A stretch of DNA of 11,623 nucleotides from Thermoproteota archaeon (GTDB lineage: Archaea; Korarchaeota; Korarchaeia; Korarchaeales; Korarchaeaceae). The notes below the pieces were generated by a model, which searched no databases, had not been told where the DNA came from, and saw only the letters and a program-made list of their open reading frames with translations. The stretch spans positions 1 to 11,623 of the forward strand of contig JAVCBY010000046.1 of the NCBI GenBank assembly GCA_037917625.1. Direction: 5' to 3'. Each line of letters opens with the position of its first letter. Within the stretch, counting starts at the first letter, position 1. Made by a program: the position numbers and the translations under genes. This document shows positions 1 through 11,623 of this stretch, one piece after another.

Positions 1-2
1 GC

Positions 3-296
3 GATCCCTTATCATTCTACAGGTCCGTAGAGGATTTTGAGAAGTTGATGTGGCCTCCTAGGAGTGAGTATAGCGTCATAAGGATACCATCCATCCCCTA
101 CCCGGATGAGGTCCTCGAGGAGGTCGTGAGGGTATTGGAAGGGGCTAGGAAGGAGGAAGTTAGGTTCAACATGGTGGCTCTTATGGGGCAGCTCGGCCTC
201 ATACAGGTGAGCGGGGGTAGGACTATCCCGACTGAGTACGGGAGGAAGTTGCTCAAGTTCTTGAGTGAGATAATGCGGACTGAGGCTAACTCCTGA
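3..296 (+). CDS. 3' part of a gene truncated by the window edge; C-terminal winged-helix domain, possibly CARF-wHTH (Csx14/Csa3-like) accessory protein
   Basis: Frame is open from base 3 (DPLSFYRSVEDFEKLMWPP...), so the tracked start at 45 is internal. C-terminus 'MGQLGLIQVSGGRTIPTEYGRKLL' fits the wHTH wing pattern (LGLI-x7-9-T-x2-G). 'WPP..SVIRIPSIPY' resembles the end of CARF-type domains. Family call is tentative. Confidence 0.55.
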   Translation, partial: DPLSFYRSVEDFEKLMWPPRSEYSVIRIPSIPYPDEVLEEVVRVLEGARKEEVRFNMVALMGQLGLIQVSGGRTIPTEYGRKLLKFLSEIMRTEANS

Positions 297-574
297 GGGA
301 ATGCATGCTTCACTGGATTAGCTCGAGAGACTCGCATCTAGATTGAACGCATTATGGACTTAAGGAAGGGAACCCTGCTGAGGGGCCTCGCTGACCCCTA
401 GGTGGTGCGAACTCCTAAGCCTTCCTTTTACCTCCGTTCCGGATGATTGAGAGCCCTCTGGAGGAGATGGGAAGGAATTGTAAGGATCTTCACTCACATT
501 TGAGCTTGATCAGAGCTCTTAAAGGTTTAGATTCGGAAACTTTTACGATGAAAGATCTTCGAGAGCAGCCGATG

Positions 575-1117
575 AGCGCATCAGGAGGAAATTGATAAGG
601 ATTGCTTCCCCATCCTCATCTCATCCTCTACTCTCAAGTAAACTTTCCCCGTCCGCTCAGCAGCTACAGCATAATAAGCCATGGAGAGAAGCTCTTTCTT
701 CAGCTCTCAGTCCTCAAGGCCTATCAAGAGGAGTTCGCTCCGGAAGCAGCCAGAGGATGAGTGAGAGCTTAATTGGATCTCTCAGCCTAAGGGGTCCCTC
801 GAAGCTGTAGAGCTCGCTAATAGTCTGAAGAGCTAAGTATAGTCTACGGGCCTCTTTGCAGCTCGATCGAACTGATTATCAATCTCTGTGAAGGGAATTT
901 TTATTATGAGCTAGATTAAAGCTCTTATAACCGCTCATTCCTTGAGTACATCCAACTTTCTCCCCTCTGACTCATCTTCTCTCAAGATAAGCTCCCTCTT
1001 ATCTTGCTCACTTCCCTCAGCCTTAGGGACCTCAAAGTACCTCTTTCTTAGCCATAACCTTTCTCCAGCTGTCTCCCGCAGGGATTTCAATGCTCTCCTT
1101 CCCGAGCCGACTCTCAT
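575..1117 (-). pseudogene. possible decayed antitoxin/PIN-toxin remnant
   Basis: A 60-aa charged ORF (935-1117) is followed by stop-interrupted frames containing 'ELLSMAYYAVAAERTGKVYL', loosely like the VapC 'YDAxYxAxAxxxG' helix. No intact gene. Confidence 0.2.
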
Positions 1118-1220
1118 CAGCTCATCGATGATTTGTTAAGCTCACATTGGGAGTTAGCTATCATCTCTAGTTCAATTAACGGGAAGAGCCTAGCTGAATT
1201 TAACCGTACTGAGATGAACC

Positions 1221-1233
1221 GTAAAGTTTAAAA
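1221..1233 (+). promoter_or_regulatory. archaeal BRE/TATA promoter of the aspartyl protease gene
   Basis: gtaaag-TTTAAAA about 25-30 nt upstream of ATG 1257; no Shine-Dalgarno, consistent with leaderless mRNA. Confidence 0.55.
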
Positions 1234-1256
1234 TCATATAACGCGTTGCTTGAGAG

Positions 1257-1613
1257 ATGGGCTTCGTTAGGGTTAGGGCTAGGGTCTGGAATATTGAGAA
1301 CCCAAAGTTGTCGAGAGAGTTAGAGTTGTTAGCTGACACGGGGGCTATTTACACAGTCTTACCTTCATCACTACTAGAGGAGCTCAGCATAAGAGCAATA
1401 GGTAGAAGAAGGTTTAAACTTGCAAACAATGAAGCGATTGAGAGGGACATAGGTTTAATAGGTATTGAAGTTGAGGACAGGTTTACGCACACTATAGTGG
1501 TGTTCGGCGAGGAGGATGTCTACCTGCTTGGCTTAACGACCTTAGAGGAGCTGGGATTGAAAGTAGATCCCGTGAAGGGAGTTCTAGTACCTATGGAGTT
1601 GCTCCTAATGTGA
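1257..1613 (+). CDS. clan AA (retroviral-like) aspartyl protease, archaeal single-domain type
   Basis: 118 aa with catalytic 'LLADTGAIYTVLP', flap 'RRRFKLAN' and C-terminal 'LLGLTTLEELGLKVDP'. Confidence 0.9.
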   Translation: MGFVRVRARVWNIENPKLSRELELLADTGAIYTVLPSSLLEELSIRAIGRRRFKLANNEAIERDIGLIGIEVEDRFTHTIVVFGEEDVYLLGLTTLEELGLKVDPVKGVLVPMELLLM

Positions 1614-1638
1614 ACAAAAAGCTTTGAAGCGTGCTTCA

Positions 1639-1728
1639 CTATCTTCTCACGTTTATTCTCCGCTTTCTTATATTCTTGGAATGCGCCAAATGATACGTCA
1701 GGCGGAACGCTTTGGTCGGGCGAGCCAT
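1639..1728 (-). CDS. putative 29-aa basic small ORF (MARPTKAFRLTYHLAHSKNIRKRRINVRR)
   Basis: AGGAGG at 1738-1733, 4 nt before ATG 1728; stop TAG at 1641-1639; below the ORF-track cutoff. Confidence 0.3.
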   Translation of the reverse strand: MARPTKAFRLTYHLAHSKNIRKRRINVRR

Positions 1729-1781
1729 GTATCCTCCTTTTTAGCAACAGGCATCTTGCGAGATCTCATCCTCTATTTTTT

Positions 1782-1805
1782 CTTTCAATCCTCTTTTCAT
1801 TGAGA
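1782..1805 (-). CRISPR. isolated CRISPR repeat copy
   Basis: ctttcaatcctcttttcattgaga is identical to 24 of 25 nt of the repeats at 2563 and 2639 (base 1806 is t instead of c). Confidence 0.9.
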
Positions 1806-1839
1806 TGCAGCACTGACAACTCGAGAGATTGAGTTTGTG

Positions 1840-1864
1840 AGTAAACTTTATTAGGGTTATCCTA
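1840..1864 (+). promoter_or_regulatory. vapBC promoter (BRE/TATA) with possible operator palindrome
   Basis: agtaaa-c-TTTATTA (1840-1853) about 27 nt upstream of GTG 1878; imperfect palindrome tagggttatccta at 1852-1864. Confidence 0.5.
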
Positions 1865-1877
1865 CCTGGAGTTTATC

Positions 1878-2105
1878 GTGGGGGATTACGTAGTCATTGC
1901 AGCGAAGATCCCGAGGAAGCTCAAGGATCTGATGGATGAGCTGGGGGTAAAGCCGGGTCCAGTTATCAGGAAAGCTCTGGAGGAGGAAGTCAGGAGAAGA
2001 ACTCTAGAAAAGCTGGAGGAAAGGGCGAGAAAGCTCCTTGAAAAACTGCCTGAAATCTCGGATGAGGAGATAGCTAGGCTGATCAGGGAGGATAGGGGGA
2101 GATGA
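1878..2105 (+). CDS. vapB: VapB-type antitoxin, ribbon-helix-helix DNA-binding
   Basis: 75 aa: 'YVVIAAKIPRKLKDLMDELGV..VIRKALEEEVRRR' RHH pattern and 'EEIARLIREDR' tail typical of archaeal VapB; directly upstream of a PIN gene. Confidence 0.85.
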   Translation: MGDYVVIAAKIPRKLKDLMDELGVKPGPVIRKALEEEVRRRTLEKLEERARKLLEKLPEISDEEIARLIREDRGR

Positions 2106-2498
2106 GATATATTTGATTCATCAGCTGTCGTGAACCTCGTGAAGAAGGGGAAGCTGTCAGCATTCATTGAGGGATGCACACTCGACTTAGCATTATATGA
2201 GTCCCTCAATGCGCTCTGGAAGGAGCACTTCCTCCTGAAAAAGCTGAGCGAGGATGTCTTTAGGGAGTACATCGACATAATCTCGGAACTCTTCAGGGCA
2301 ATAGAGGTCAAGAGCGTGATGGAACTCGAGGACAAAGTCTTGGAAAATGCTGTAAAGTACGGTATCACTGTATATGACTCATCTTACCTAACTTATGCGA
2401 TGGAGAATGGTCTTATGCTCGTCACGGACGATGAAAAGCTCTCTAGCAAAGCGAGGGATAAAGTAAATGTGATATCCACTTCCGAGATTCGATCGTGA
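2102..2498 (+). pseudogene. vapC: VapC PIN-domain toxin with 5' frameshift
   Basis: PIN motifs IFDSSAVVNL (2109-2138), LALYESLNALWK, ITVYDSSYL, LVTDD. The coupled ATG at 2102 (ATGA overlap with the vapB stop) reads MRYI-stop and is out of frame with the body; the tracked start at 2130 omits the first catalytic Asp. Confidence 0.8.
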
Positions 2499-2562
2499 AG
2501 GTTCCCGAATTCGGAGGTTTCGCGATAAGAGACGTTTCATTCCCTCTATCACTCTCTCTACC

Positions 2563-2663
2563 CTTTCAATCCTCTTTTCATTGAGACCCTCGTTATTCAG
2601 CTACAAACAGGCCCGCATTTGCGAGATTTCACCCCAAGCTTTCAATCCTCTTTTCATTGAGAC
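2563..2663 (-). CRISPR. CRISPR mini-array: two identical 25-bp repeats and one 51-bp spacer
   Basis: ctttcaatcctcttttcattgagac at 2563-2587 and 2639-2663. The minus strand reads GTCTCAATGAAAAGAGGATTGAAAG with the canonical ATTGAAAG handle. Spacer at 2588-2638. Confidence 0.9.
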
Positions 2664-2767
2664 GTTAAAGAGAGAATATGATGAAATAAGCACCAAAATA
2701 GGGATTTTAAGAGGATCTACTTCTACTAATTAATGTATGAAACTTACAAGGATTGGAATTTCTTCTA
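2664..2767 (-). promoter_or_regulatory. putative CRISPR leader
   Basis: AT-rich ~100-bp stretch between the last operon stop codon (2768) and the first repeat; TTAAAA on the minus strand at 2710-2705. Confidence 0.55.
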
Positions 2768-3028
2768 TTACTTGGCCTCACTCGAGCTGATTCCATTTTG
2801 TATTCTACTAATTATAAAGAACTCGGGTATATATATGTACATTTTTTCCACTATTTTATTTATTTCATTTGCAAAGCTATCCTCGTTTTCGGCAATTTGT
2901 TTCATCTTATTATGCAGTTCTGAGATATCCTCTGCTAGAGATCCCAGATATCCTTGAATCTCCTCCACACTATCCAGAAGATCATCTAGAACCTTAAGAG
3001 AATCGTGTTCCTCTAGATCAGTCCTCAA
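2768..3028 (-). CDS. acidic coiled-coil ORF, probably the frameshifted C-terminus of the 3037-4632 gene
   Basis: TTG start without an obvious RBS; its frame stays open 22 codons further upstream (NIFYSGEYIQDYAQHLENLVDT), overlapping the end of the upstream ORF. Confidence 0.6.
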   Translation of the reverse strand: MRTDLEEHDSLKVLDDLLDSVEEIQGYLGSLAEDISELHNKMKQIAENEDSFANEINKIVEKMYIYIPEFFIISRIQNGISSSEAK

Positions 3029-3036
3029 GGTATCTA

Positions 3037-4632
3037 CTAAATTCTCGAGATGTTGAGCATAATCTTGGATGTACTCTCCAGAATAGAAGATATTTTATTT
3101 ATTGAATAGCTCAATTTAACGGATATGCCATAATAGCATCTCAAGTAACGTATAAATTTTTCATTTAATATTTCTTCACTTATCATAATAGGAATAACGG
3201 GTAGAATTCCATGCGTTATAGAAAGACTATTCCTCAAATTTTTTAAATGATATTCTAAATTTCCAGATTTTATTTTATAAAATTTATTCTTTTCATCATT
3301 AAGACTCAATTCGAAGTAGTGGATCTTTTTTATTAATTCATTCAAAGTGTCCAGCCTTCCTGGCTTATGCAATTTGGGTAAGAACTCGTTGGATAAGAAC
3401 TCCCTCTTTTCTTTCTCCTTTTCTTTCTCATATTTATCCGAGGGGATCGCGAGGAAGTAGGGAAGCGTATTCATAATCCTATCTACTTGATCCATCATAT
3501 TGACGAAATTATAAAGATTCGTAAAGAAATATACCATATCTGCTCTCATTAGATAATGAAATATACTTACAATGAAGTGAAGGTAAGGAATTATAACACT
3601 ATTTGCATATATGAGACTCGCTATACCGGAGTTCCTCACAAGATGGGTGAAGAATTTTACATCAAAATCATCGCCTGCCTCTCCCCTGTCTGAGCTTTTA
3701 CTCACTCTCAATTCCCCTAAACTCTTGAATAAAACCTCCATTTTCGTTATCTTATCTACATATTTTCCATAAATCTCAATTATTGAGGAGAACACTTCTC
3801 TCAGATTCTTAATATTAGTATAGCTTGGCATTACGCTTTGGACGAGATCTAGATGCGGTAGTAGGAGTTTATTCACTATGAGCTCTATTGTATTCATTAT
3901 GGATTCTTCTATTTTATGGGTCGCTTGTTCACTTCTATACACACTTTGTATATAAATTGTTAACTGATTTAAGATTAATGAGTTTATTATATTATAAAAC
4001 CGATAAACAAGCTCCTTGGTGTCATTATTTTGAGGAAAGATCGATAATATATCTAAGGTTATATTTATTAGTGATTCTATTAGTGACTCTACATAATTCT
4101 CCCTATTTGAATGATCTGGAAGCTCTATTTTCTGTAATATCGATCCTCCTGTCTGTTCCTCTTTAATCGCGTGAAAATACTGGATATTTGATAAGATACT
4201 GTCTTCTGATAGGACGCCTTCTAATATTGTTTGAACTTCCTCTCTCATATCGATGGAGAGTTTATCATGTAGGAATATATGGAGAGCGGCTCTAATGAGA
4301 GGTCCCTTCAAGTCCCTCAGGGGTCCCTTCTCTAGATGCTTTACGAGATATTTGAACTCGCGGTCGATGATATCTATAAATCTAACTGAATTTTCATCTG
4401 AGATTGTAGGAAGAAATAGAATCCCGATGGATTTTATACCCTTTAACTCCGCACTACTCTTCACTTCCTCTAAGCTCTTCTCCTTAGGTATCCCTCCTTC
4501 TATCTCGTAAAACTTTCCATATATGAAGAAGAGTTTTTTATCATATATCGGATCCATGAACTTGAGTTTGGGTAGTTTTAAGTCCCCATCCTCCCAAAAC
4601 AGTGATGAGACCAGTAGTATATCCGGGATCAA
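3037..4632 (-). CDS. uncharacterised AT-rich, largely alpha-helical protein appended to the type III operon
   Basis: 531-aa ORF whose TTG start lies 1 nt after the upstream stop, preceded by AGGGGA; no motif recognised. Confidence 0.8.
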   Translation of the reverse strand: MIPDILLVSSLFWEDGDLKLPKLKFMDPIYDKKLFFIYGKFYEIEGGIPKEKSLEEVKSSAELKGIKSIGILFLPTISDENSVRFIDIIDREFKYLVKHLEKGPLRDLKGPLIRAALHIFLHDKLSIDMREEVQTILEGVLSEDSILSNIQYFHAIKEEQTGGSILQKIELPDHSNRENYVESLIESLINITLDILSIFPQNNDTKELVYRFYNIINSLILNQLTIYIQSVYRSEQATHKIEESIMNTIELIVNKLLLPHLDLVQSVMPSYTNIKNLREVFSSIIEIYGKYVDKITKMEVLFKSLGELRVSKSSDRGEAGDDFDVKFFTHLVRNSGIASLIYANSVIIPYLHFIVSIFHYLMRADMVYFFTNLYNFVNMMDQVDRIMNTLPYFLAIPSDKYEKEKEKEKREFLSNEFLPKLHKPGRLDTLNELIKKIHYFELSLNDEKNKFYKIKSGNLEYHLKNLRNSLSITHGILPVIPIMISEEILNEKFIRYLRCYYGISVKLSYSINKISSILESTSKIMLNISRI

Positions 4633-4633
4633 C

Positions 4634-5005
4634 TTATCCCCTTACCAAGTCAATCAGTTGATTTATTTCCCACTTTCCTAACTTCTTCAACTGAAAGTAC
4701 ACACTGCATAGAGATTTGAGATCCCTATCCATACTCATTAATATATCGAGGATCTTTGATGAGATTATCTCTGCATCAGGCAGAGAGAATTGAATTCTCT
4801 TACTCGAGAACTTCGATGCTATCTCGCTTATTATTCCCTTTATGAAAATATCTCTATCCTTAGATGGATCGTATCCTTTCCTCAATATGTACTCATACTT
4901 TCTCAGTAGCTTGAAGCTCAAGTCATATGCATCACGGTCCCCGCTTAACTGCTTCAAGGAATTGCTCATCCTTATGAGCTGGACGAGATCCTCGCATCTA
5001 ACCAT
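4634..5005 (-). CDS. small alpha-helical type III-associated protein (123 aa; possible second small subunit)
   Basis: GGAGGTG precedes ATG 5005 (MVRCEDLVQ...), which overlaps the upstream stop, making this a better start than 5050. Helical and basic, no RAMP glycine loop. Confidence 0.7.
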   Translation of the reverse strand: MVRCEDLVQLIRMSNSLKQLSGDRDAYDLSFKLLRKYEYILRKGYDPSKDRDIFIKGIISEIASKFSSKRIQFSLPDAEIISSKILDILMSMDRDLKSLCSVYFQLKKLGKWEINQLIDLVRG

Positions 5006-5789
5006 CGCCGAACACCTCCAAAAACCTATCCTTAAGCTCCTGAAAAGCATTATTTACATCTTTCATTATTTCTTCAGTAATTTCTCTCTCCCTTCCGAGG
5101 CTATCGAGAGAGAACACCTTCAAATCTGAGATCCTGATTTTCCCCAGGCCCTTCGGCTTTCCGAATCCTAGAAGCAGTATTTTAGGCTCCTGGGGATTGT
5201 ATCCCATCGCTAAGATAAGTTTCGCTGTTTCCATCTTGAGTGGATTCAGAACGGTGATATCCGTATGCAGAATTGCCCCTTTGGGAATGCATTCTAAGTA
5301 ATACTGCTTTGTCTCCTCTTTAAACTCAATATCACTCCTATATATCTTTATCTTTCCAAATTCCCTCCTCCTTGGCTGCCAACTCGGGCCTACGCTGAGT
5401 ATCTGAGGTTCAATCTGTCCCTCCGGGAATGAATCTGAGAAGAGAGCTCTCGACATATAGCCGGGGAATCCGAAGAGAATTGAAGTTGATGATATGCTTC
5501 CAGTGATCGCTAAATAATAGTGTGAGATCACCCCCTTCAAAGTGGAACCAGGTATTAAGAGCTTATCATCTCTTCTTGCGTTGAGGAATAGGGGAAGTCC
5601 CTCATAAAGCTCAATTTCTCCACTTCCAACATGCACTGGAGATTCCGTCCTGATGGATGCTCGTATCTTATGAGCCTCTCTTAAGCTAGAGTGATGTAGC
5701 TCACGAGTCTCTTTTAAGTAAGAGTATAGGACCTTATTCATAGTGTCTCTCTTCACACCATCCACTTTTATGAATTTGTAAGTGCTCAT
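4998..5789 (-). CDS. cas7: Cas7-group RAMP, Csm5-like distal subunit
   Basis: 'TESPVHVGSG', 'LLIPGSTLKG', G-loop 'LLGFGKPKGLG'; no Csm3-type Asp after GSG. ATG 5789 overlaps the upstream TGA (ATGA), making this a better start than 5840. Confidence 0.85.
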   Translation of the reverse strand: MSTYKFIKVDGVKRDTMNKVLYSYLKETRELHHSSLREAHKIRASIRTESPVHVGSGEIELYEGLPLFLNARRDDKLLIPGSTLKGVISHYYLAITGSISSTSILFGFPGYMSRALFSDSFPEGQIEPQILSVGPSWQPRRREFGKIKIYRSDIEFKEETKQYYLECIPKGAILHTDITVLNPLKMETAKLILAMGYNPQEPKILLLGFGKPKGLGKIRISDLKVFSLDSLGREREITEEIMKDVNNAFQELKDRFLEVFGDG

Positions 5790-6625
5790 TTGCTCAACCC
5801 CTCGATCAGAGAATTTAGACATCCCTCGACATCCTTCCATTTCAACTTAGCCCTCAGGAGAGGCGGTTCTGTCTCAGGTTCGCATTTCAAATTGCATTTT
5901 GAGATAGAATCTAGGATAGAGATCTTATCCGCTTTCCTCAGGTCTAACCTCACGTACTTCCCGTAACTTGGAAAGTTCATCGAGAAAGAGAGCTCTTTCC
6001 TCTCTGAAGGCCATGGGATGATTAGGGAGATATCTGATAAACTCATGGATACATACCCGTATCCCCTGCTCTTAGATCTTCCCAATCTAGCGATTCCAGC
6101 ATTTGCCTGCGTGATCACTGGGGAAAGAAGCGAGAGGAAAGATGGAGGGATGTTCCTGAAGGAGATCTCGAATGAAAAATTGGTCTCTTCCTTTATATAT
6201 TCTTGAGTGAAGGGTCCGTACTTCACAGCCATAGTCGATGGATCTATCTTGATGTGCTCTCTCGTTCCAATAGCATCACTCCTCTCCGTTTGAGCATCAC
6301 TGAAAAAAAGTCTAGAGCCATAGGCTTCCCTCCTCCTGGCAGTTCCAAAGAGATCCTCCAGAAGTCCCGCATATCCCTCTCTATTGAGTGAGGATAGAGT
6401 CCTCTCTATTCCGGATCTGAAGAACCCCTTGAGAGTTGATCCAGGTATCACAGGTCTCCCCCTAGAATCCCTGAGGAGGGGTAAGTCCGGGGAGAGAGGG
6501 TCTATGGGACTCTTACCGGCTCCGATCGTTAGAGGTGATTTCGTCGTTATCTCGCACTTCATACTCCCTGAGATCACGATGGCTTCGAACCCTCTAATTT
6601 CTTTAATCTCATGCATCTCATTCAC
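5786..6625 (-). CDS. csm3: Cas7-group RAMP, Csm3-like
   Basis: 'SPLTIGAG..SPDLPLLRD', 'IPGSTLKGFFRS', 'LFG', 'RLGRSKSRGYG'; the start may be ATG 6616. Confidence 0.88.
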   Translation of the reverse strand: MNEMHEIKEIRGFEAIVISGSMKCEITTKSPLTIGAGKSPIDPLSPDLPLLRDSRGRPVIPGSTLKGFFRSGIERTLSSLNREGYAGLLEDLFGTARRREAYGSRLFFSDAQTERSDAIGTREHIKIDPSTMAVKYGPFTQEYIKEETNFSFEISFRNIPPSFLSLLSPVITQANAGIARLGRSKSRGYGYVSMSLSDISLIIPWPSERKELSFSMNFPSYGKYVRLDLRKADKISILDSISKCNLKCEPETEPPLLRAKLKWKDVEGCLNSLIEGLSK

Positions 6626-7265
6626 CCCCCGAGCATACTCGCTAGATCTACTTCTCTCACCTTCCCCTCGAAAAGATCCTTTAAATCAGCTACCTTTATG
6701 CTGGTCAGCTTTATCTTAACCCTCCCATATCCCCTGCTCCTCCATCCCCCTATGAACTCCTCCAAGCCATTGTGTAGCATTTTCAGTAGTAATATGAATA
6801 AATTGTTCGCATCCGAGAACCGGGGGTCGCTGAGCTCATTGAATATTATAGTGAACTTGAATTTAGTTGGGTTATCCTCATACTCCTTTATCGCTTCCAC
6901 TTTCACAAGAGCTCCCCTCTCAGCGGCGTCCCTCTCCCTATTGATTGAGACATGTGTCCTGGAGAGTGTGTCTACCGTATAAACTGGTGAGGCTTCCGTG
7001 AACTTTATCAGGGAGGAGAGTGATAAATTCCTCCCAGAGTATCCAAAAAGTTTATCAATTATGCAAAGATCCTCTAAACTCTTCGCATCCCTCTTCTCTG
7101 AGATACTATCTACGCAAGGCTCTAATCCGACCCTTATCTTATCTACCTCGATGGAGGAGCTCCCGGAGATCTTATAGGCGAGGAGGAGGCGGGATAGATA
7201 GGATCTGAAGAACCCCTTGAGAGTTGATCCCGGTATCACAGGTCTCCCCCTAGAATCCCTGAGGA
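6413..7265. repeat. 65-bp direct repeat shared by the two csm3 paralogs (6413-6477 and 7201-7265)
   Basis: ggatctgaagaaccccttgagagttgatcc[a/c]ggtatcacaggtctccccctagaatccctgagga; 64/65 identical. Confidence 0.95.
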
Positions 7266-7389
7266 CCGGAAGATCTATCGGGGAGGTCGGATCCCTTCCG
7301 GCGCCGACTCTCAGGGGCTCAAGTAACTCTATTTCACAATCCGCCCATATCCTCCTCCTCAAGGTCAGAAGTCCTCCAACCCCGCTCAT
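6622..7389 (-). CDS. csm3: Cas7-group RAMP, Csm3/Csx7-like backbone RNase
   Basis: 'EPLRVGAG..PIDLPVLRD' (catalytic Asp position), 'IPGSTLKGFFRS', 'C...CIIDKLFG', 'RTHVSINR', 'IGGWRSRGYG'. Confidence 0.9.
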   Translation of the reverse strand: MSGVGGLLTLRRRIWADCEIELLEPLRVGAGRDPTSPIDLPVLRDSRGRPVIPGSTLKGFFRSYLSRLLLAYKISGSSSIEVDKIRVGLEPCVDSISEKRDAKSLEDLCIIDKLFGYSGRNLSLSSLIKFTEASPVYTVDTLSRTHVSINRERDAAERGALVKVEAIKEYEDNPTKFKFTIIFNELSDPRFSDANNLFILLLKMLHNGLEEFIGGWRSRGYGRVKIKLTSIKVADLKDLFEGKVREVDLASMLGG

Positions 7390-7393
7390 AAGA

Positions 7394-7792
7394 TCACCTC
7401 AAAAGATCACTAAGTTCCTTCCTGTAGGCAGTGAAGATGTAGATACATGCTGTCAAGGTATATTTCGCCAGTTTCAGCCTCTCTTTGGTGTCTTTAGAGC
7501 TCTCAATGATCTCTCTTATGAGATTTCTGACGAATTTATATAGATCATCTCCTTTAGATGCTCTTCTAGCTATGAAAATTATTCTGAGCCCGAAGAGATC
7601 CCAATTGTTCTTTTTCTCGCAATCGATCGCTGCATCCAACATATTCCTAAGATTCGTCATTGTGATACTTGATTCCTCTCTCCCTTCTTCCTCCTCCTCT
7701 GTGGGTATACGGACGCCTATAAAGAGCTTCTTCGCTATCTCAACAGCCTTCCTCTGGAGGTTTACCTCCTCTAGGGAACTCGAACTCATCAA
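7394..7792 (-). CDS. cas11: Cas11 small subunit (Csm2-like)
   Basis: ~131 aa helical, 'ITMTNLRNMLD' and 'FGLRIIFIARR'; located between cas5 and cas7; GGAGGTGA RBS. Confidence 0.75.
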   Translation of the reverse strand: MMSSSSLEEVNLQRKAVEIAKKLFIGVRIPTEEEEEGREESSITMTNLRNMLDAAIDCEKKNNWDLFGLRIIFIARRASKGDDLYKFVRNLIREIIESSKDTKERLKLAKYTLTACIYIFTAYRKELSDLLR

Positions 7793-8805
7793 ATATCACC
7801 TCCCGAGCTAAAATGAAGGGGATTATCAAAAAAGATCATATCAAGACCGTGAAACCTCCTCAAAACATCGGAGGGGGGAGTAAGCTCTATTTGAATGATC
7901 TTCTCCGGGTCAAGATCTCCTCTGGGATAGACGAGGACGCTTCCAGGCCCGATCATCCCTCTATAGATATAGAACTTGCCATCTAGCCATGCCTTGAAAT
8001 TTGAAATCCTCAACTTCTCATATATGGGACTTCCAAGCCCTAGGACTCTATCCCTTGAGGAAAATGTCACTACATCAACTGTTAGGAACTTATGATCGGG
8101 TCTCAATCTCCTCATCCTCTCATTCCTATACCCATCAAAGTCCATTGAACTCTCCAATTTGATCTCAGCGAGCCCGAATCCCTTCTTCTTGAAAGCCCCT
8201 ATCCTCACTTCAGTCCCCCCTTTAAGCTCCTCATATAGGGAGTCATCTAGGAAAGCGAGGGAGTGAAACTTTGATCCAGGCCTTATGACTTCCTGCGTGA
8301 AAAGCAGTCCATATCTCTCTCCATCTACCTCTATATAGAAATGAGTCCTACTATCGTAGCTCAATGCGACTTGTGTGAATACTTCCTTCCTCGGAGGTCT
8401 GAAGATCCCTGAGGGGCTTATGAAAACCTCCCCCACCTTTTTGTCCAGCTTCCCCATCTTATCGAGTATATGAGGCCCCTCCTCCATCGCACTAGCAAAA
8501 AGAAGGGCAACAGAGAGGTAATTGCCATCTTCCCTCTTCGCCAATGTGGAGAGCGGTAGAGGAGGTGGTCCGCAAAGCTCAAATGGCTTATCGCTGGGAA
8601 AAGCATGACTCATCCAAAGGTTCAGATCCCCTATGCTACCTCTCGAGCCCCTCTTACCGAAGAAAACTGATGCTATAGCCCCTGAGAGTGTTGATGACGG
8701 TATGTATGATGGGCTAAAATAATGAGCTCCCTTGCTGTATTTATCCCTTATCGCGAGGGGCTCCATGGCCTCTATGCTTAAAAGAGCGACTCTATCGAAT
8801 CCCAT
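7789..8805 (-). CDS. cas5: Cas5-group RAMP (Csm4 / Csx10 C-terminal half-like)
   Basis: 'EAMEPLAI', 'YIPSSTLSGAIA', 'SHAFP', 'LLFTQEVIRPG', internal G-loop 'RIGAFKKKGFG', later 'GPGSV'. Confidence 0.8.
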   Translation of the reverse strand: MGFDRVALLSIEAMEPLAIRDKYSKGAHYFSPSYIPSSTLSGAIASVFFGKRGSRGSIGDLNLWMSHAFPSDKPFELCGPPPLPLSTLAKREDGNYLSVALLFASAMEEGPHILDKMGKLDKKVGEVFISPSGIFRPPRKEVFTQVALSYDSRTHFYIEVDGERYGLLFTQEVIRPGSKFHSLAFLDDSLYEELKGGTEVRIGAFKKKGFGLAEIKLESSMDFDGYRNERMRRLRPDHKFLTVDVVTFSSRDRVLGLGSPIYEKLRISNFKAWLDGKFYIYRGMIGPGSVLVYPRGDLDPEKIIQIELTPPSDVLRRFHGLDMIFFDNPLHFSSGGDI

Positions 8806-9388
8806 CGAATCTCACCTCCTCAACATTCCCGTAGCCTAAACAGGTCCATCCTCCTATTCCCCAGCCTTTGAGGGCATTTAGAGATTTTTTCAGAAGTTCT
8901 ATCTCCTTCTCGTTTAGATCTTCACTCGATTCTATCAGAAAAGTTACTTTGAGCTCCGATGATATCACTTGGGAGAAGAGAAGAGCTCCCTTCTCCACTA
9001 CCCCGAGTTCCCTATCAATTTTAATCCTTGGTCTTGACTCGATGATATCATCCAAGTTTAAATCGCAACTCTCGATCTCAAAGCTGAGCTTCCCCTCCTT
9101 AGAGATAGGAGAAGCTATCTCTCTATCTCTCTCGAAGCACCTACCAGCCACGTCCGTGCCGAAGAGATCCTCATATGCTTGCCTGAGTTCAGGGTAGTTC
9201 TGCACCACTATGCACGCTACTTGTCTGAGCGCTCCTTTGAACTGAGCTGGAGATATAGGGCATGTCACTATTTTGTCCCCAATTTTCTTCTCGTAGATCA
9301 TTATCTCATAATCCTCCTTCCTTATCTCACTCGAGGGTTGAACTGACCTCATACCCCTCAGCTTGATCTCCAGCCTCAATCCCCTCAT
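8792..9388 (-). CDS. cas7: short Cas7-group RAMP (Csx10 N-terminal half-like)
   Basis: 'ISPAQFKGALR', 'EDLFG', 'RPRIKIDRELGVVEKGALLF', G-loop 'GIGGWTCLGYG'; ATGA overlap with the cas10 stop. Confidence 0.82.
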   Translation of the reverse strand: MRGLRLEIKLRGMRSVQPSSEIRKEDYEIMIYEKKIGDKIVTCPISPAQFKGALRQVACIVVQNYPELRQAYEDLFGTDVAGRCFERDREIASPISKEGKLSFEIESCDLNLDDIIESRPRIKIDRELGVVEKGALLFSQVISSELKVTFLIESSEDLNEKEIELLKKSLNALKGWGIGGWTCLGYGNVEEVRFDGIR

Positions 9389-11448
9389 ATCACAACCCCT
9401 ACCTCACAGAGTTTCCTCCTGAGATCCACACCACCGATCTCATTCCTCATCCTGTCCTCTAAGATATCCAGGAGGGAGGCAAGTGCATAAACTGACCTCC
9501 AGAGTTCATCGGATCCTCCTATAGTTAGCTCTTTGAATATTTCCCTGAGGTTCTCGTATATCTCCTCGTTCTCCTCCATACCCCTAGCTATATCGCTCAA
9601 CCACCTGAGCACAGTGAGATCGGGATGCAACTTTCCGGGGGAGAGTAGATCATCAAGAACTTCTCTGAGATCAGAGGATCTGACCGCATTATCCCCTCCT
9701 ATAGCGATCTTGAACGCTTTGAGGACCGGGGATTCTCCCCTCCCCTTCCATATCAAGGAATTCCATAGAGATGCTTTCACTTTAGTTTTATCGAAATAGA
9801 ATCTTTCAATCGATTTCCAAGATGCGCTCGACTTTGAATAGAGGAGGGAGGCCTGAACTGTGAATCCATTCCCTCCGATAGACTTCACTACATCCTTCGT
9901 ATACCTGAGCATGCGATGGGAGGTCTCATATAAGTATACGCCAGGTATCTTCGTCCTTCCCACGCTTATTCCCATGCTGATTCCCACTTTCCTATCCTTT
10001 GGGATTATCTCAAGCCCAATAGCGTTTGAAAGTATTCCCTCAACATGAGCGAGACCTTCTATGAATCCGATTATGTGTTCAGCCCTAAGAATGAGCACCA
10101 TATCATCCCCAGCCACGTAGAAGGGAGTTATCGGGAAGAAGAAGTCGTACTTCCTCGGTTCAGTTGTCCCTCTCATTTCTAACAATTTTTCCTCGATCTT
10201 CAAGGAGTTCTTTGCCCCCTCAATTAACCCCTCTTCCATCAGCGCGCTGAAGAGAATGGATAGGGAGAGGAAGTCCTTTATGCTCTTAGACTCGCCCTTA
10301 AGACTACCGAAGCCATCCCCATCCGCACTTACCATAGCGATTAGTGCATTTGAGGACTCAGAATAATCATAATCCTCCAGATCGGATATGAACCCGATTT
10401 TAAGTCCATGGAAGTACTTCCTCAATCTATCGAGTATAGTGAAGGATGAGGCTTCCCTAACGGCTTCCGATACTCTCTCATTCCACCCTTCAGTGTTTCC
10501 ATTCAGGATATTCATGAGGATATGCCCGTATATAGAGAGGACGAGGCAGCTCTGGCATATCTTACCTCCACCCCTCTCCACTAAGCTTTTCCTCAGTTCT
10601 TCCGCCTTCCCGTCTTTAGCGAAGGACCTCAGCAATTTATCGATGGACCGCTCATCTAAGCACCGATCGGTCCTGCAACTCCTACAGATATCACTTGGAT
10701 CCAGTTCCACTGAATCCTCTAAATGTTCTATAACTTTAGCGGAGGCTAGAGCTAGTCTATATGACGATCCAAAGTTATTTATCAGATCTCTAGCTCTAAG
10801 CTTCGGGGGGCTTCTACCGTTCCCCTTAAGAACAATGACATCCGCGAGAGGTATTCCCTTTAAGTGCTCAATTATCCCCTCCTCTAACTCCCTTGAGAAA
10901 TCCGAAGAGGAGATAAATACGAGCTCTCCAGCTTCCTTTGTCAATATGAATTCCTCTCCCAGCCTCTCAGCCACATATTTTGATGCATACCTCGGGATTA
11001 TATCAATTAGAAGACTAGCACCTCTCATCTCCTTGAAAGCACCATTCCTCCTTATTAGCTCCTTGATGGAACCTACCTCTAAAAGCTGTATCGTGACTTC
11101 CCAGTTACCCTCCTCTATGGAATCTAAGAAACTCTTGGCCTCTTTGTAGTAATCTGTATCCCCTATCTTCTCAGCTAATTTGCTGAATCCCTCTTTCTCA
11201 GCGACAGCCTTTAATGAGGAGAGCCTTGCCTCCCTCCAATGATCGCTCCCTGGATCTTTTGAGAGAGATAACGTTAGAAGAGGAGGATAAGTGCGTATCC
11301 TTAAGAGGCTATGGAATAACTCCTTTTCTATCCCCTCTATTAAGAATTTCTTGAGCTTTTTGTTTACTTCCTCGAAGAAGTTTAAGCCCGAATTATAAAT
11401 GGCTATGAGCTCCTCCTCCACTTGCTTCCTTGCATCTCTAATCATCAA
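9385..11448 (-). CDS. cas10: Cas10 large subunit of a type III system, lacking HD nuclease domain
   Basis: Palm1 'VGSIKELIRR..KEMRGASLLID', Zn finger CRSC...CQSC, Palm2 'VSADGDGFG' and 'FYVAGDDMVL', 'ISMGI'; start TTG 11448 or ATG 11445. Confidence 0.93.
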   Translation of the reverse strand: MMIRDARKQVEEELIAIYNSGLNFFEEVNKKLKKFLIEGIEKELFHSLLRIRTYPPLLTLSLSKDPGSDHWREARLSSLKAVAEKEGFSKLAEKIGDTDYYKEAKSFLDSIEEGNWEVTIQLLEVGSIKELIRRNGAFKEMRGASLLIDIIPRYASKYVAERLGEEFILTKEAGELVFISSSDFSRELEEGIIEHLKGIPLADVIVLKGNGRSPPKLRARDLINNFGSSYRLALASAKVIEHLEDSVELDPSDICRSCRTDRCLDERSIDKLLRSFAKDGKAEELRKSLVERGGGKICQSCLVLSIYGHILMNILNGNTEGWNERVSEAVREASSFTILDRLRKYFHGLKIGFISDLEDYDYSESSNALIAMVSADGDGFGSLKGESKSIKDFLSLSILFSALMEEGLIEGAKNSLKIEEKLLEMRGTTEPRKYDFFFPITPFYVAGDDMVLILRAEHIIGFIEGLAHVEGILSNAIGLEIIPKDRKVGISMGISVGRTKIPGVYLYETSHRMLRYTKDVVKSIGGNGFTVQASLLYSKSSASWKSIERFYFDKTKVKASLWNSLIWKGRGESPVLKAFKIAIGGDNAVRSSDLREVLDDLLSPGKLHPDLTVLRWLSDIARGMEENEEIYENLREIFKELTIGGSDELWRSVYALASLLDILEDRMRNEIGGVDLRRKLCEVGVVI

Positions 11449-11467
11449 CCATTACCGATACTAACTT

Positions 11468-11513
11468 TTATTTAAGTGTGACTTGCGCAGCCTAAGTTAA
11501 AAATGTTAACTTA
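11468..11513 (-). promoter_or_regulatory. cas operon promoter: TATA box plus upstream palindromic operator
   Basis: TTAAATAA (minus, 11475-11468) about 25 nt before the cas10 start; perfect 8-bp inverted repeat TAAGTTAA-N5-TTAACTTA at 11493-11513. Confidence 0.6.
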
Positions 11514-11623
11514 CAATCCCCTCTGATCGGGATGCAATCAAGTACTCGCAAATATAAGGCTTCCGATTCCTCTTCAAATTTCCTTAGTTTTTAAGATCTC
11601 TTATCGGCTCCTATACATCATGC

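Follow-up and report, generated by a model that had tools for sequence, protein, structure and literature searches.

A probable undescribed accessory gene family at the end of a type III-D CRISPR operon in Korarchaeota

Type III CRISPR systems with an HD-less Cas10 rely on ancillary proteins, and an operon of this kind on contig JAVCBY010000046.1 of the Thermoproteota archaeon assembly GCA_037917625.1 (family Korarchaeaceae) raises the question of whether its last gene encodes such a partner. We analysed positions 1 to 11,623 of this contig (11,623 nucleotides (nt); this whole stretch of DNA is referred to as the window), in which an initial annotation had described a large, AT-rich gene as a recently acquired, possibly undescribed type III partner. 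The comparisons below make it very probable that this gene, here called the accessory gene, belongs to a real and so far undescribed family of accessory genes in a type III-D module. For its function, we favour an ancillary effector or sensor that would be switched on by the Cas10 signal, a reading to which we assign a probability of roughly 0.4. The parts of the accessory gene are:

3083..4632, minus strand: first ~516 codons, with a TTG start at 4632 and in frame with the intact homologues
3079..3080, minus strand: frameshift site, with 1 base fewer than in homologues and in contigs of other runs
2768..3082, minus strand: final ~103 codons and stop, in the shifted frame (the listed open reading frame (ORF) is 2768-3028)
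4633..4646, minus strand: gene junction, consisting of a Shine-Dalgarno-like GGGGAT in the end of the upstream gene, a stop, 1 nt, and the TTG start; kept in 5/5 aligned loci

The window contains this gene as two minus-strand ORFs in different frames, one of 531 amino acids (aa) with a TTG start (3037-4632) and one of 86 aa (2768-3028). Because intact homologues of 589-614 aa (including proteins of 614, 607, 592, and 591 aa) span both ORFs, and because the break amounts to one missing base, sequence comparison identifies the two as one gene of ~617 codons. The 3083..4632 part is 85-88% identical to the intact 614-aa homologue P0002 over residues 5-512, and the stop-free frame of 2768..3082, which reads on from 3082, shares 85% identity with P0002 residues 511-613. 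A metagenome scan returned 7 related loci in three lineages, and DNA alignment with three of them (L004, L005, and L007) places the missing base in a short G/A run behind 3079, so that the 531-aa ORF leaves the correct frame for its last ~14 residues. The downstream ORF thus belongs to the same gene, from which it is separated by this single missing base and not by an in-frame stop, and the initial reconstruction of 621 aa comes close to the true product of ~617 aa. The window pieces were left unjoined, and the searches were made with the intact natural homologue P0002.

Four public runs (X1-X4) were compared with the window as assembled contigs, not as raw reads. The extra base behind 3079 is present in contigs of X1 and X4, and the window's frameshifted version occurs in no run that covers the site (X2 and X3 do not cover it), indicating that the interruption is private to the window's assembly or strain and represents either a strain-specific inactivation or an assembly error. 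The X1 contig covering the frameshift site has 11 differences per ~730 positions compared to the window. In addition, an X1 contig contains a 3053-to-4340 joint, an internal deletion variant whose database counterpart (P0006) is a natural in-frame deletion form of 189 aa with ~100 N-terminal and ~90 C-terminal residues left.

The minus strand carries a nine-gene array from Cas10 down to the 531-aa ORF (3037-4632). Upstream of the accessory gene, it comprises:

9385..11448, minus strand: Cas10, 687 aa, HD motif absent, AGDD cyclase motif present
8792-9388, minus strand: RAMP (Pfam, NCBIfam, PADLOC)
7789-8805, minus strand: Csx10/Cas5-like RAMP (Pfam, NCBIfam, PADLOC)
7394-7792, minus strand: small subunit, 132 aa, weak Cas11 match
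6622-7389, minus strand: RAMP (Pfam, NCBIfam, PADLOC)
5786-6625, minus strand: RAMP (Pfam, NCBIfam, PADLOC)
4998-5840, minus strand: RAMP (Pfam, NCBIfam, PADLOC)
4634..5050, minus strand: small gene of no known family, 138-aa ORF (122-125 aa by other gene callers, with a start near 5005)

The operon's matches in Pfam, NCBIfam, and PADLOC are to Csx7, Csx10, Cas5-IIId, and Cas10/Cas10d. Based on the five RAMP-family ORFs (one of them Csx10/Cas5 III-D), the Cas10/Cas10d matches, and the 132-aa small subunit, we assign the operon to the type III-D interference modules, which by definition combine Cas10 and a Csx10-type Cas5 with a small subunit and with four or five paralogues of the Cas7/RAMP group (PMC3973734).

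Linkage of the accessory gene to this operon is consistent across the related loci. Two of them are uninformative upstream, since L005 starts inside the gene and L009 has only ~94-120 nt of upstream sequence. In all of the remaining five (L004, L006, L007, L008, and L010), a homologue of the small gene lies directly upstream, with RAMP genes further upstream wherever the contig is long enough, and L006 and L007 contain the entire operon in the gene order of the window, encoding proteins 80-91% identical to the window's. The junction in these five loci has the same architecture, with GGGGAT in the last codons of the upstream gene, a stop, a gap of 1-2 nt or an overlap of 4 nt, and a TTG start; the observation that the large ORF begins 1 nt past the last small gene of the cas operon holds for the stop of the 138-aa ORF (4634-5050). 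We conclude from this gene arrangement that the accessory gene is the last, apparently translationally coupled gene of the operon. The proposal of a dedicated type III partner, for which a gene-neighbourhood check of homologues for cas10 linkage had been suggested, is borne out in that the homologues sit in cas loci and adjoin the small gene and RAMP genes in 5/5 loci with upstream sequence.

A genome of the same genus (G026, 99% complete) also carries the operon, with a Cas10 54% identical to that of the window, and here the operon ends with a 125-aa homologue of the small gene (48% identical); the accessory gene was not found in this genome. After the operon (L017:8004-9207) follow ~1.2 kilobases (kb) without an ORF of at least 100 aa and in which repeats were not found, and beyond this stretch a HEPN/nucleotidyltransferase pair and then housekeeping genes. 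As this relative has the operon without the accessory gene, the gene appears to be optional and not a core subunit. It is linked to and co-oriented with the core genes (spacing of at most 4 nt in 5/5 loci) yet dispensable, as is characteristic of type III accessory genes, and as expected for a non-core gene it matches no Cas model and the G026 operon lacks it.

The family is very small. Among 5.8 billion proteins, a word-index search retrieved four clusters, including the window's own, to which a profile search added none. HMMER, run exhaustively over 1.84 billion representatives, contributed one further full-length lineage (P0005, 37% identity) and the 189-aa P0006. In total, about five clusters at 90% identity make up the family, with members in Korarchaeum, Methanodesulfokora, and Infirmifilum uzonense. 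One further hit, the 4998-aa P0007 (E=3.7e-4), was rejected as spurious, as it is a giant Ig-repeat adhesin. No relative was found in 42/42 other species genomes of the phylum, in 37/37 genomes of the order, or in a scan of viral contigs (IMG/VR). Two pattern-based scans of genome contigs also found no relative but missed the known copy of I. uzonense, a result of the pattern step and not of absence. This copy (MA03_02800), in a cultured archaeon with a complete genome, is a full-length homologue (34% identity, E=4e-86), and the family thus spans two archaeal phyla.

Public copies of the gene in Candidatus Korarchaeum cryptofilum, Candidatus Methanodesulfokora sp., and I. uzonense are annotated as 'hypothetical protein', and curated names do not go beyond 'hypothetical protein' or 'Uncharacterized protein'. 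Two members of the P0004 cluster (P0022 and P0025) bear the automatic Joint Genome Institute (JGI) names AzlD and YggT, which denote small membrane-protein families; these names are unverified and were presumably triggered by a hydrophobic block. The family has no match in Pfam (searched to E=10), NCBIfam, PADLOC, or PHROGs, and a sequence search of the PDB with the family profile returned only coiled-coil and helical-bundle noise (best E=0.005). Nor was a description of it found in a survey, by titles and abstract openings, of literature on III-D/csx10 accessory genes, Korarchaeota type III CRISPR, and Tneu_1160. With no match in any library and uninformative public names, the initial description as possibly undescribed agrees with our searches, as does its failure to recognise CARF, SAVED, HEPN, or RAMP motifs, none of which was matched in Pfam, NCBIfam, or PADLOC.

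Compared to the rest of the operon, the accessory gene evolves rapidly. Between the window and L007, its amino-acid identity is 0.67 for the N-terminal and 0.53 for the C-terminal part, with an omega (dN/dS, the ratio of non-synonymous to synonymous substitution rates) of 0.29-0.32, whereas the eight other operon genes have identities of 0.80-0.91 and an omega of 0.08-0.25. Between L010 and L007, omega is 0.20 for the accessory gene vs. 0.09-0.11. Across the cas-linked loci, identities of the accessory gene run from 85% down to 46%. These values show a gene that is constrained by purifying selection, yet is the fastest-changing of the operon.

The gene also stands out by its base composition. 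Its G+C content is 34.5% vs. 45.5% for 4634-11448, and the mean G+C count in 60-nt windows is 20.7 (n=31) vs. 27.3 (n=113; Mann-Whitney p=2e-9), in line with the initial statement that it is much more AT-rich than the cas genes, for which the example counts (8/60 at 3241-3300 and 33/60 at 6421-6480) are exact. However, the claim of recent acquisition is not supported by the comparison of lineages. The accessory gene has a G+C content of 0.34-0.355 in the window, L004, L007, and L010, with 0.40-0.51 in neighbouring cas genes; its third-position G+C is 0.34-0.38 vs. 0.46-0.60 for other cas genes in all three lineages, and its second codon positions have a G+C of 0.23-0.26, which acts via the amino-acid composition. 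Synonymous sites between the three lineages are near saturation (dS up to about 1.9), and the divergence of the gene follows the order of operon divergence. The same low G+C in three lineages despite near-saturated synonymous sites argues against a recent acquisition and for a bias that is maintained. One possible reading is that the AT-rich synonymous sites and the TTG start reflect selection for low expression of a harmful effector.

In the encoded protein, Ile, Leu, Lys, Asn, Tyr, and Phe are abundant (Ile+Leu 23-25%), whereas Gly and Ala are scarce. Hydropathy periodicity is beta-like at residues 21-60 and 421-460, fits amphipathic helices at 181-300 and 361-400, and is strongly helical at 481-600; the protein is probably mostly helical. 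The initial description of an alpha/beta-like N-terminus, long helical regions, and a coiled-coil tail is roughly supported by this periodicity, with weak coiled-coil or helical-bundle matches of the C-terminal 100 residues, and the hydrophobic stretch quoted there is present in the translation. The best-conserved parts are a hydrophobic/aromatic block (336-400), a block at 456-500 that holds an invariant L-R-N-x5-H-G, and a terminal Y-x-Y-x-P-E-F tail, and the coiled-coil-like region 501-590 is the least conserved. In addition, residues 5-12 of P0002 (I-P-D-I-L-L-V-S) resemble residues 594-601 (I-P-E-F-F-I-I-S) in all homologues (BLAST pair); in the window, these strands correspond to about 4600-4632 and about 2790-2830, and they could form a head-to-tail contact.

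Which signal might such a protein respond to? A literal HD is absent from the first 50 residues of the window's Cas10, confirming the HD-less state reported initially, and its SADGDGFG and AGDD motifs are invariant in 4/4 aligned homologues. AGDD is among the accepted motifs of presumably active cyclases in Hoikkala et al. (PMC11229360), and by motif the protein agrees with the definition used there (a GGDD-type motif and no HD in the first 50 residues). In L007, a canonical Csx1 gene (CARF E=7e-38, HEPN E=6e-14) lies 360 nt downstream of the accessory gene and an STIV B116-like gene lies upstream of cas10. L008 contains a B116-like gene and a Csx14/Crn1-like gene beyond the array. B116/DUF1874 proteins and Crn1 are ring nucleases for cyclic tetra-adenylate (cA4), and due to Csx1 and these ring-nuclease-like genes, the neighbourhoods of the related loci point to cA4 signalling. 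Between the array and these genes, L008 also encodes a 663-aa ORF (L008:7571-9562, minus strand) without a Pfam or NCBIfam match, which proved unrelated to the accessory protein by hhalign. In the window's own genome (84% complete), we found no Csx1 CARF or HEPN, B116-like, NE0113, or APE2256 family. This genome encodes one Cas10 only, as well as a type I-A system that includes an adaptation module and Csa3 and lies beside a large array whose repeat is almost identical.

In the favoured reading, Cas10 would make cyclic oligoadenylate, probably cA4, upon binding of target RNA, and this molecule would switch on the accessory protein as an ancillary effector or sensor, a role that Csm6 plays at the end of type III-A operons. 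A single cryptic Rossmann-like module or a pair of them (about residues 1-100 and about 390-500) might form the sensor; the second would contain the invariant L-R-N-x5-H-G with a T-H-G loop resembling the Csx1 CARF loop motif, and the output part might be represented by the best-conserved blocks (336-400, around 456-500, and the Y-x-Y-x-P-E-F tail). This proposal draws on the operon-terminal position, which is like that of csm6, the HD-less, cyclase-type Cas10, and the cA4-related neighbours, as well as on the gene's optional presence, rapid evolution, weak-expression features, and repeated natural inactivation. Such repeated losses, i.e. the frameshift, the deletion form in P0006 and X1, and the absence from G026, would fit a harmful effector. 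The idea of a cryptic sensor stems from the beta-like periodicity at 21-60 and 421-460 and the invariant L-R-N...H-G block. More tentative, and in our view rather unlikely, is the extended proposal of a new effector class that combines a sensor unlike CARF/SAVED, maybe with two Rossmann-like modules, with a novel output and is horizontally shared between Korarchaeota and Thermofilaceae.

Several observations weigh against an effector or sensor. The presence of Csx1 next door in one lineage (L007) implies that the operon does not rely on the accessory gene as its sole effector, and together with the G026 operon, which lacks the accessory gene, this weakens the earlier notion that the HD-less Cas10 depends on it. 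The tight translational coupling to structural genes fits a subunit of the complex equally well. The linkage count also leaves out the genomic context of the most distant members (I. uzonense and Methanodesulfokora). In profile comparisons by hhalign with an alignment of 9 Csx1 proteins from korarchaeal genomes, the whole family reached a probability of 0.4%, and comparison by parts did not exceed 0.4% with the HEPN half or 2.1% with the CARF half. CARF, SAVED, HEPN, and other domains were absent from the Pfam (E to 10), NCBIfam, PADLOC, and PHROGs results. Finally, the similarity of the N-terminal module to residues 395-530 (P=0.034), although better than that of five control segment pairs (P 0.17-0.59), is not significant.

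At the motif level, CARF effectors have a ligand loop of the D-x-T-H-G type that follows a beta strand. The family has x-x-(T/M)-H-G-(I/V)-L with invariant H and G, and the weak best hhalign alignments place its T-H-G on the T-H-G loop of the Csx1 CARF domain, with scores that are not significant. R-N-x5-H (Rx6H) is invariant in 5/5 sequences and literally fits Rx4-6H, and the hhalign comparison with the HEPN half left this motif unaligned. The Csx1_HEPN and HEPN profiles gave no match to the accessory protein, and no SAVED domain was detected in the Pfam-A or PADLOC scans. Profile comparisons thus do not support CARF or HEPN membership. Searches of the ESM Atlas with the whole protein and with residues 1-135 yielded no usable feature matches, and its own model had a predicted local distance difference test (pLDDT) score of 0.36, with generic alpha/beta folds as structural neighbours (template modelling (TM) score below 0.5); neither was used as evidence.

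The main rival, doubtful but ahead of the smaller ones (a membrane effector, a role at the array, and a passenger gene), is a lineage-specific extra subunit or adaptor of the III-D complex. It would modulate target recognition, stability, or localisation and would not take part in a second-messenger response, perhaps docking via the conserved 123-aa protein encoded directly upstream; Cmr7 is a comparable case. Its position inside the operon with translational coupling to the preceding gene in 5/5 loci is what would be expected of a subunit, and searches detected neither a sensor nor an enzyme domain. With its long amphipathic helical make-up, the C-terminus fits protein-protein interaction, and the likeness of I-P-D-I-L-L-V-S and I-P-E-F-F-I-I-S could mediate oligomerisation or docking. 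However, the G026 operon does without the accessory gene and yet has the 125-aa gene, non-synonymous evolution of the accessory gene is 2-4 times faster than that of every core subunit, and the TTG start and AT-rich codons argue against stoichiometric production.

As an improbable sub-form of the effector reading, the block at 336-400 might insert into the membrane and perturb its integrity on activation, a mechanism proposed for Cam1, Csx23, or CorA. Among the long regions, this hydrophobic block is the best conserved (mean pairwise identity 0.54), and the JGI names AzlD and YggT of the two P0004-cluster members would agree with a membrane protein, although these names are unverified. Its Kyte-Doolittle 19-residue peak, marginal for a membrane helix, reaches 1.66-1.98 in 3/5 homologues but just 1.33-1.36 in the other 2/5. 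The single charge-free stretch of ~26 residues lies in the middle of a protein of 600 aa and contains many conserved Tyr, Asn, His, and Ser; Asp and Arg break up the hydrophobic stretch that follows, and with 23-25% Ile+Leu overall a buried helix could look alike.

Similarly low odds apply to an array-related role, in which the protein would bind leader or repeats, control transcription, or mature CRISPR RNA (crRNA). In the window, L008, L009, and L010, the gene ends 84-104 nt from an array with nearly the same repeat, a Cas6_C match was not found in the window's genome, and a non-CARF accessory family acting in crRNA maturation is described by Shah et al. 2018, but the orientation of the array relative to the gene is opposite in the window vs. 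L008-L010, the downstream neighbour in L006/L007 is csx1 and not an array, and no nucleic-acid-binding domain was detected. Lastly, a gene without CRISPR function that hitch-hikes or decays at the operon end, with the window copy as a pseudogene, would account for the frameshift, the internal deletion variant in a public run, the absence from 42/42 other species genomes of the phylum, and the odd composition compared to its neighbours, but is improbable given that position, start-site architecture, and full length are kept from 85% down to 46% identity, that a 34%-identical full-length copy exists in another phylum, that dN/dS is well below 1, and that the frame is intact in near-identical strains.

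Returning to the favoured effector or sensor, the closest parallels are Csm6 and Csx1, which the accessory gene resembles in closing or adjoining the 3' end of a type III operon with a cyclase-competent Cas10, in its optional presence and fast evolution, and in the R-N-x5-H-G fitting Rx4-6H with a T-H-G loop like that of the korarchaeal Csx1 CARF. In contrast to these proteins, it has no CARF or HEPN profile match, exceeds them by ~150 residues, has a long helical central part and a tail of coiled-coil character, and co-occurs with a true Csx1 in one lineage. Can1 and Csm6-2 are single-chain effectors with two sensor domains, and Csm6-2 is present in 16 III-D loci (PMC11229360). The accessory protein is likewise large and type III-D associated and possibly has two related alpha/beta modules in its chain, a weak likeness; the duplication lacks statistical support (P=0.034), and no nuclease domain was recognised in the accessory protein. 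With the type III membrane effectors Cam1, Cam2, Cam3, Csx23, and CorA (Cam2 and Cam3 described in PMC11229360), the family shares a conserved hydrophobic block, the lack of a nuclease domain, and candidate effector status in loci with an HD-less, cyclase-positive Cas10, but it shows no more than a single, marginal transmembrane-like segment, located mid-protein, and has no PADLOC or Pfam match.

By description only, the family can also be likened to Cmr7 and the Tneu_1160 family, which are lineage-restricted, belong to no larger family, and are encoded with archaeal type III modules. Cmr7 is an extra subunit of the Sulfolobales Cmr-beta complex, and Tneu_1160 represents a family of large CRISPR-linked proteins of unknown function in Thermoproteales (PMC3973734 Table 5). 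About half of the accessory families beside type III modules lack both a CARF domain and a known function (PMC6546367). Among such genes, the accessory gene is a clean case: it keeps a strict place in the operon throughout three diverged lineages, its product has no recognisable domain, purifying selection is combined with rapid change, and natural inactivation has occurred repeatedly. The member in the cultured I. uzonense makes binding and activity tests feasible. If the protein senses cyclic oligoadenylate, it would represent a new sensor or output type, and a subunit role would make the III-D complex here a new variant, although the general reach is limited by a very small family known only from hot-spring archaea.

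Downstream of the accessory gene, the window contains CRISPR repeats:

2563..2663 (2563-2587, 2639-2663), plus strand: two 25-nt CRISPR repeats with one 51-nt spacer
1782..1806, plus strand: third, isolated repeat copy with 1 mismatch, 780 nt away
2664..2767, minus strand: AT-rich stretch of 104 nt (29.5% G+C) between the gene stop and the first repeat, a possible leader

The initial placement of the gene's end at a CRISPR leader is correct with respect to the adjacent repeats, but these are only two plus one isolated copy, and the leader role is inferred. The window is collinear with L004/L005 at 91-92% down to 2643. In L008, L009, and L010, a large array begins 84-90 nt after the accessory gene, with a repeat differing by one base (arrays at L008:2281-5000, L009:1960-3522, and L010:4470-6198; window repeats at 1782-2663), and the repeat nearest the gene is degenerate in L008 and L009. 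The repeat sense in these three loci is that of the gene, whereas in the window the same repeat sense is on the strand opposite to the gene, so that array orientation relative to the gene differs between the 46%-identity lineage and the window. Judging from one end of the C40 array, where identical variant repeats follow one another, and presuming a ATTGAAAG-type 5' handle, the strand complementary to the written repeat is probably the one from which crRNA is read. The two-repeat remnant of the window would therefore be co-directional with the operon, with 2664-2767 as a candidate leader; a comparison of 2630-2830 with the flank of the C40 large array and with L008/L010 gave no usable leader alignment.

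In the 757 nt between the repeats at 1782 and 2563 (1806-2562), two plus-strand ORFs (1878-2105 and 2130-2498) form a VapBC-like pair, one with weak Rv0623-type antitoxin matches and the other with a PIN domain. A toxin-antitoxin module seems to have entered a decayed array or to have taken the place of part of it.

The small gene preceding the accessory gene (4634-5050) is also without a match in Pfam, NCBIfam, or PADLOC, and a relationship as a Cas11 paralogue was ruled out by hhalign against the Cas11-like subunit. It is better conserved than the accessory gene (61-90% vs. 46-85% identity), always precedes it, and is retained in G026, where the accessory gene is absent. Possibly, this III-D variant has in it a core or accessory component that has gone unrecognised.

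A Cas10 fragment with 61% identity to the Cas10 of the window occurs in a different genus of this archaeal family, where it shares a contig (G032:C85; L016, L028, and L029) with two Csx1 genes, one of them ~1 kb from the fragment. An Rfam scan of the window gave no match. Finally, a 118-aa clan AA aspartic protease is encoded at 1257-1613 on the plus strand (Pfam gag-asp_proteas E=1e-5; NCBIfam TIGR03698 E=9e-9), and small retropepsin-like proteins are listed among the accessory genes of type III-D modules (PMC3973734 Table 5; PMC6546367).

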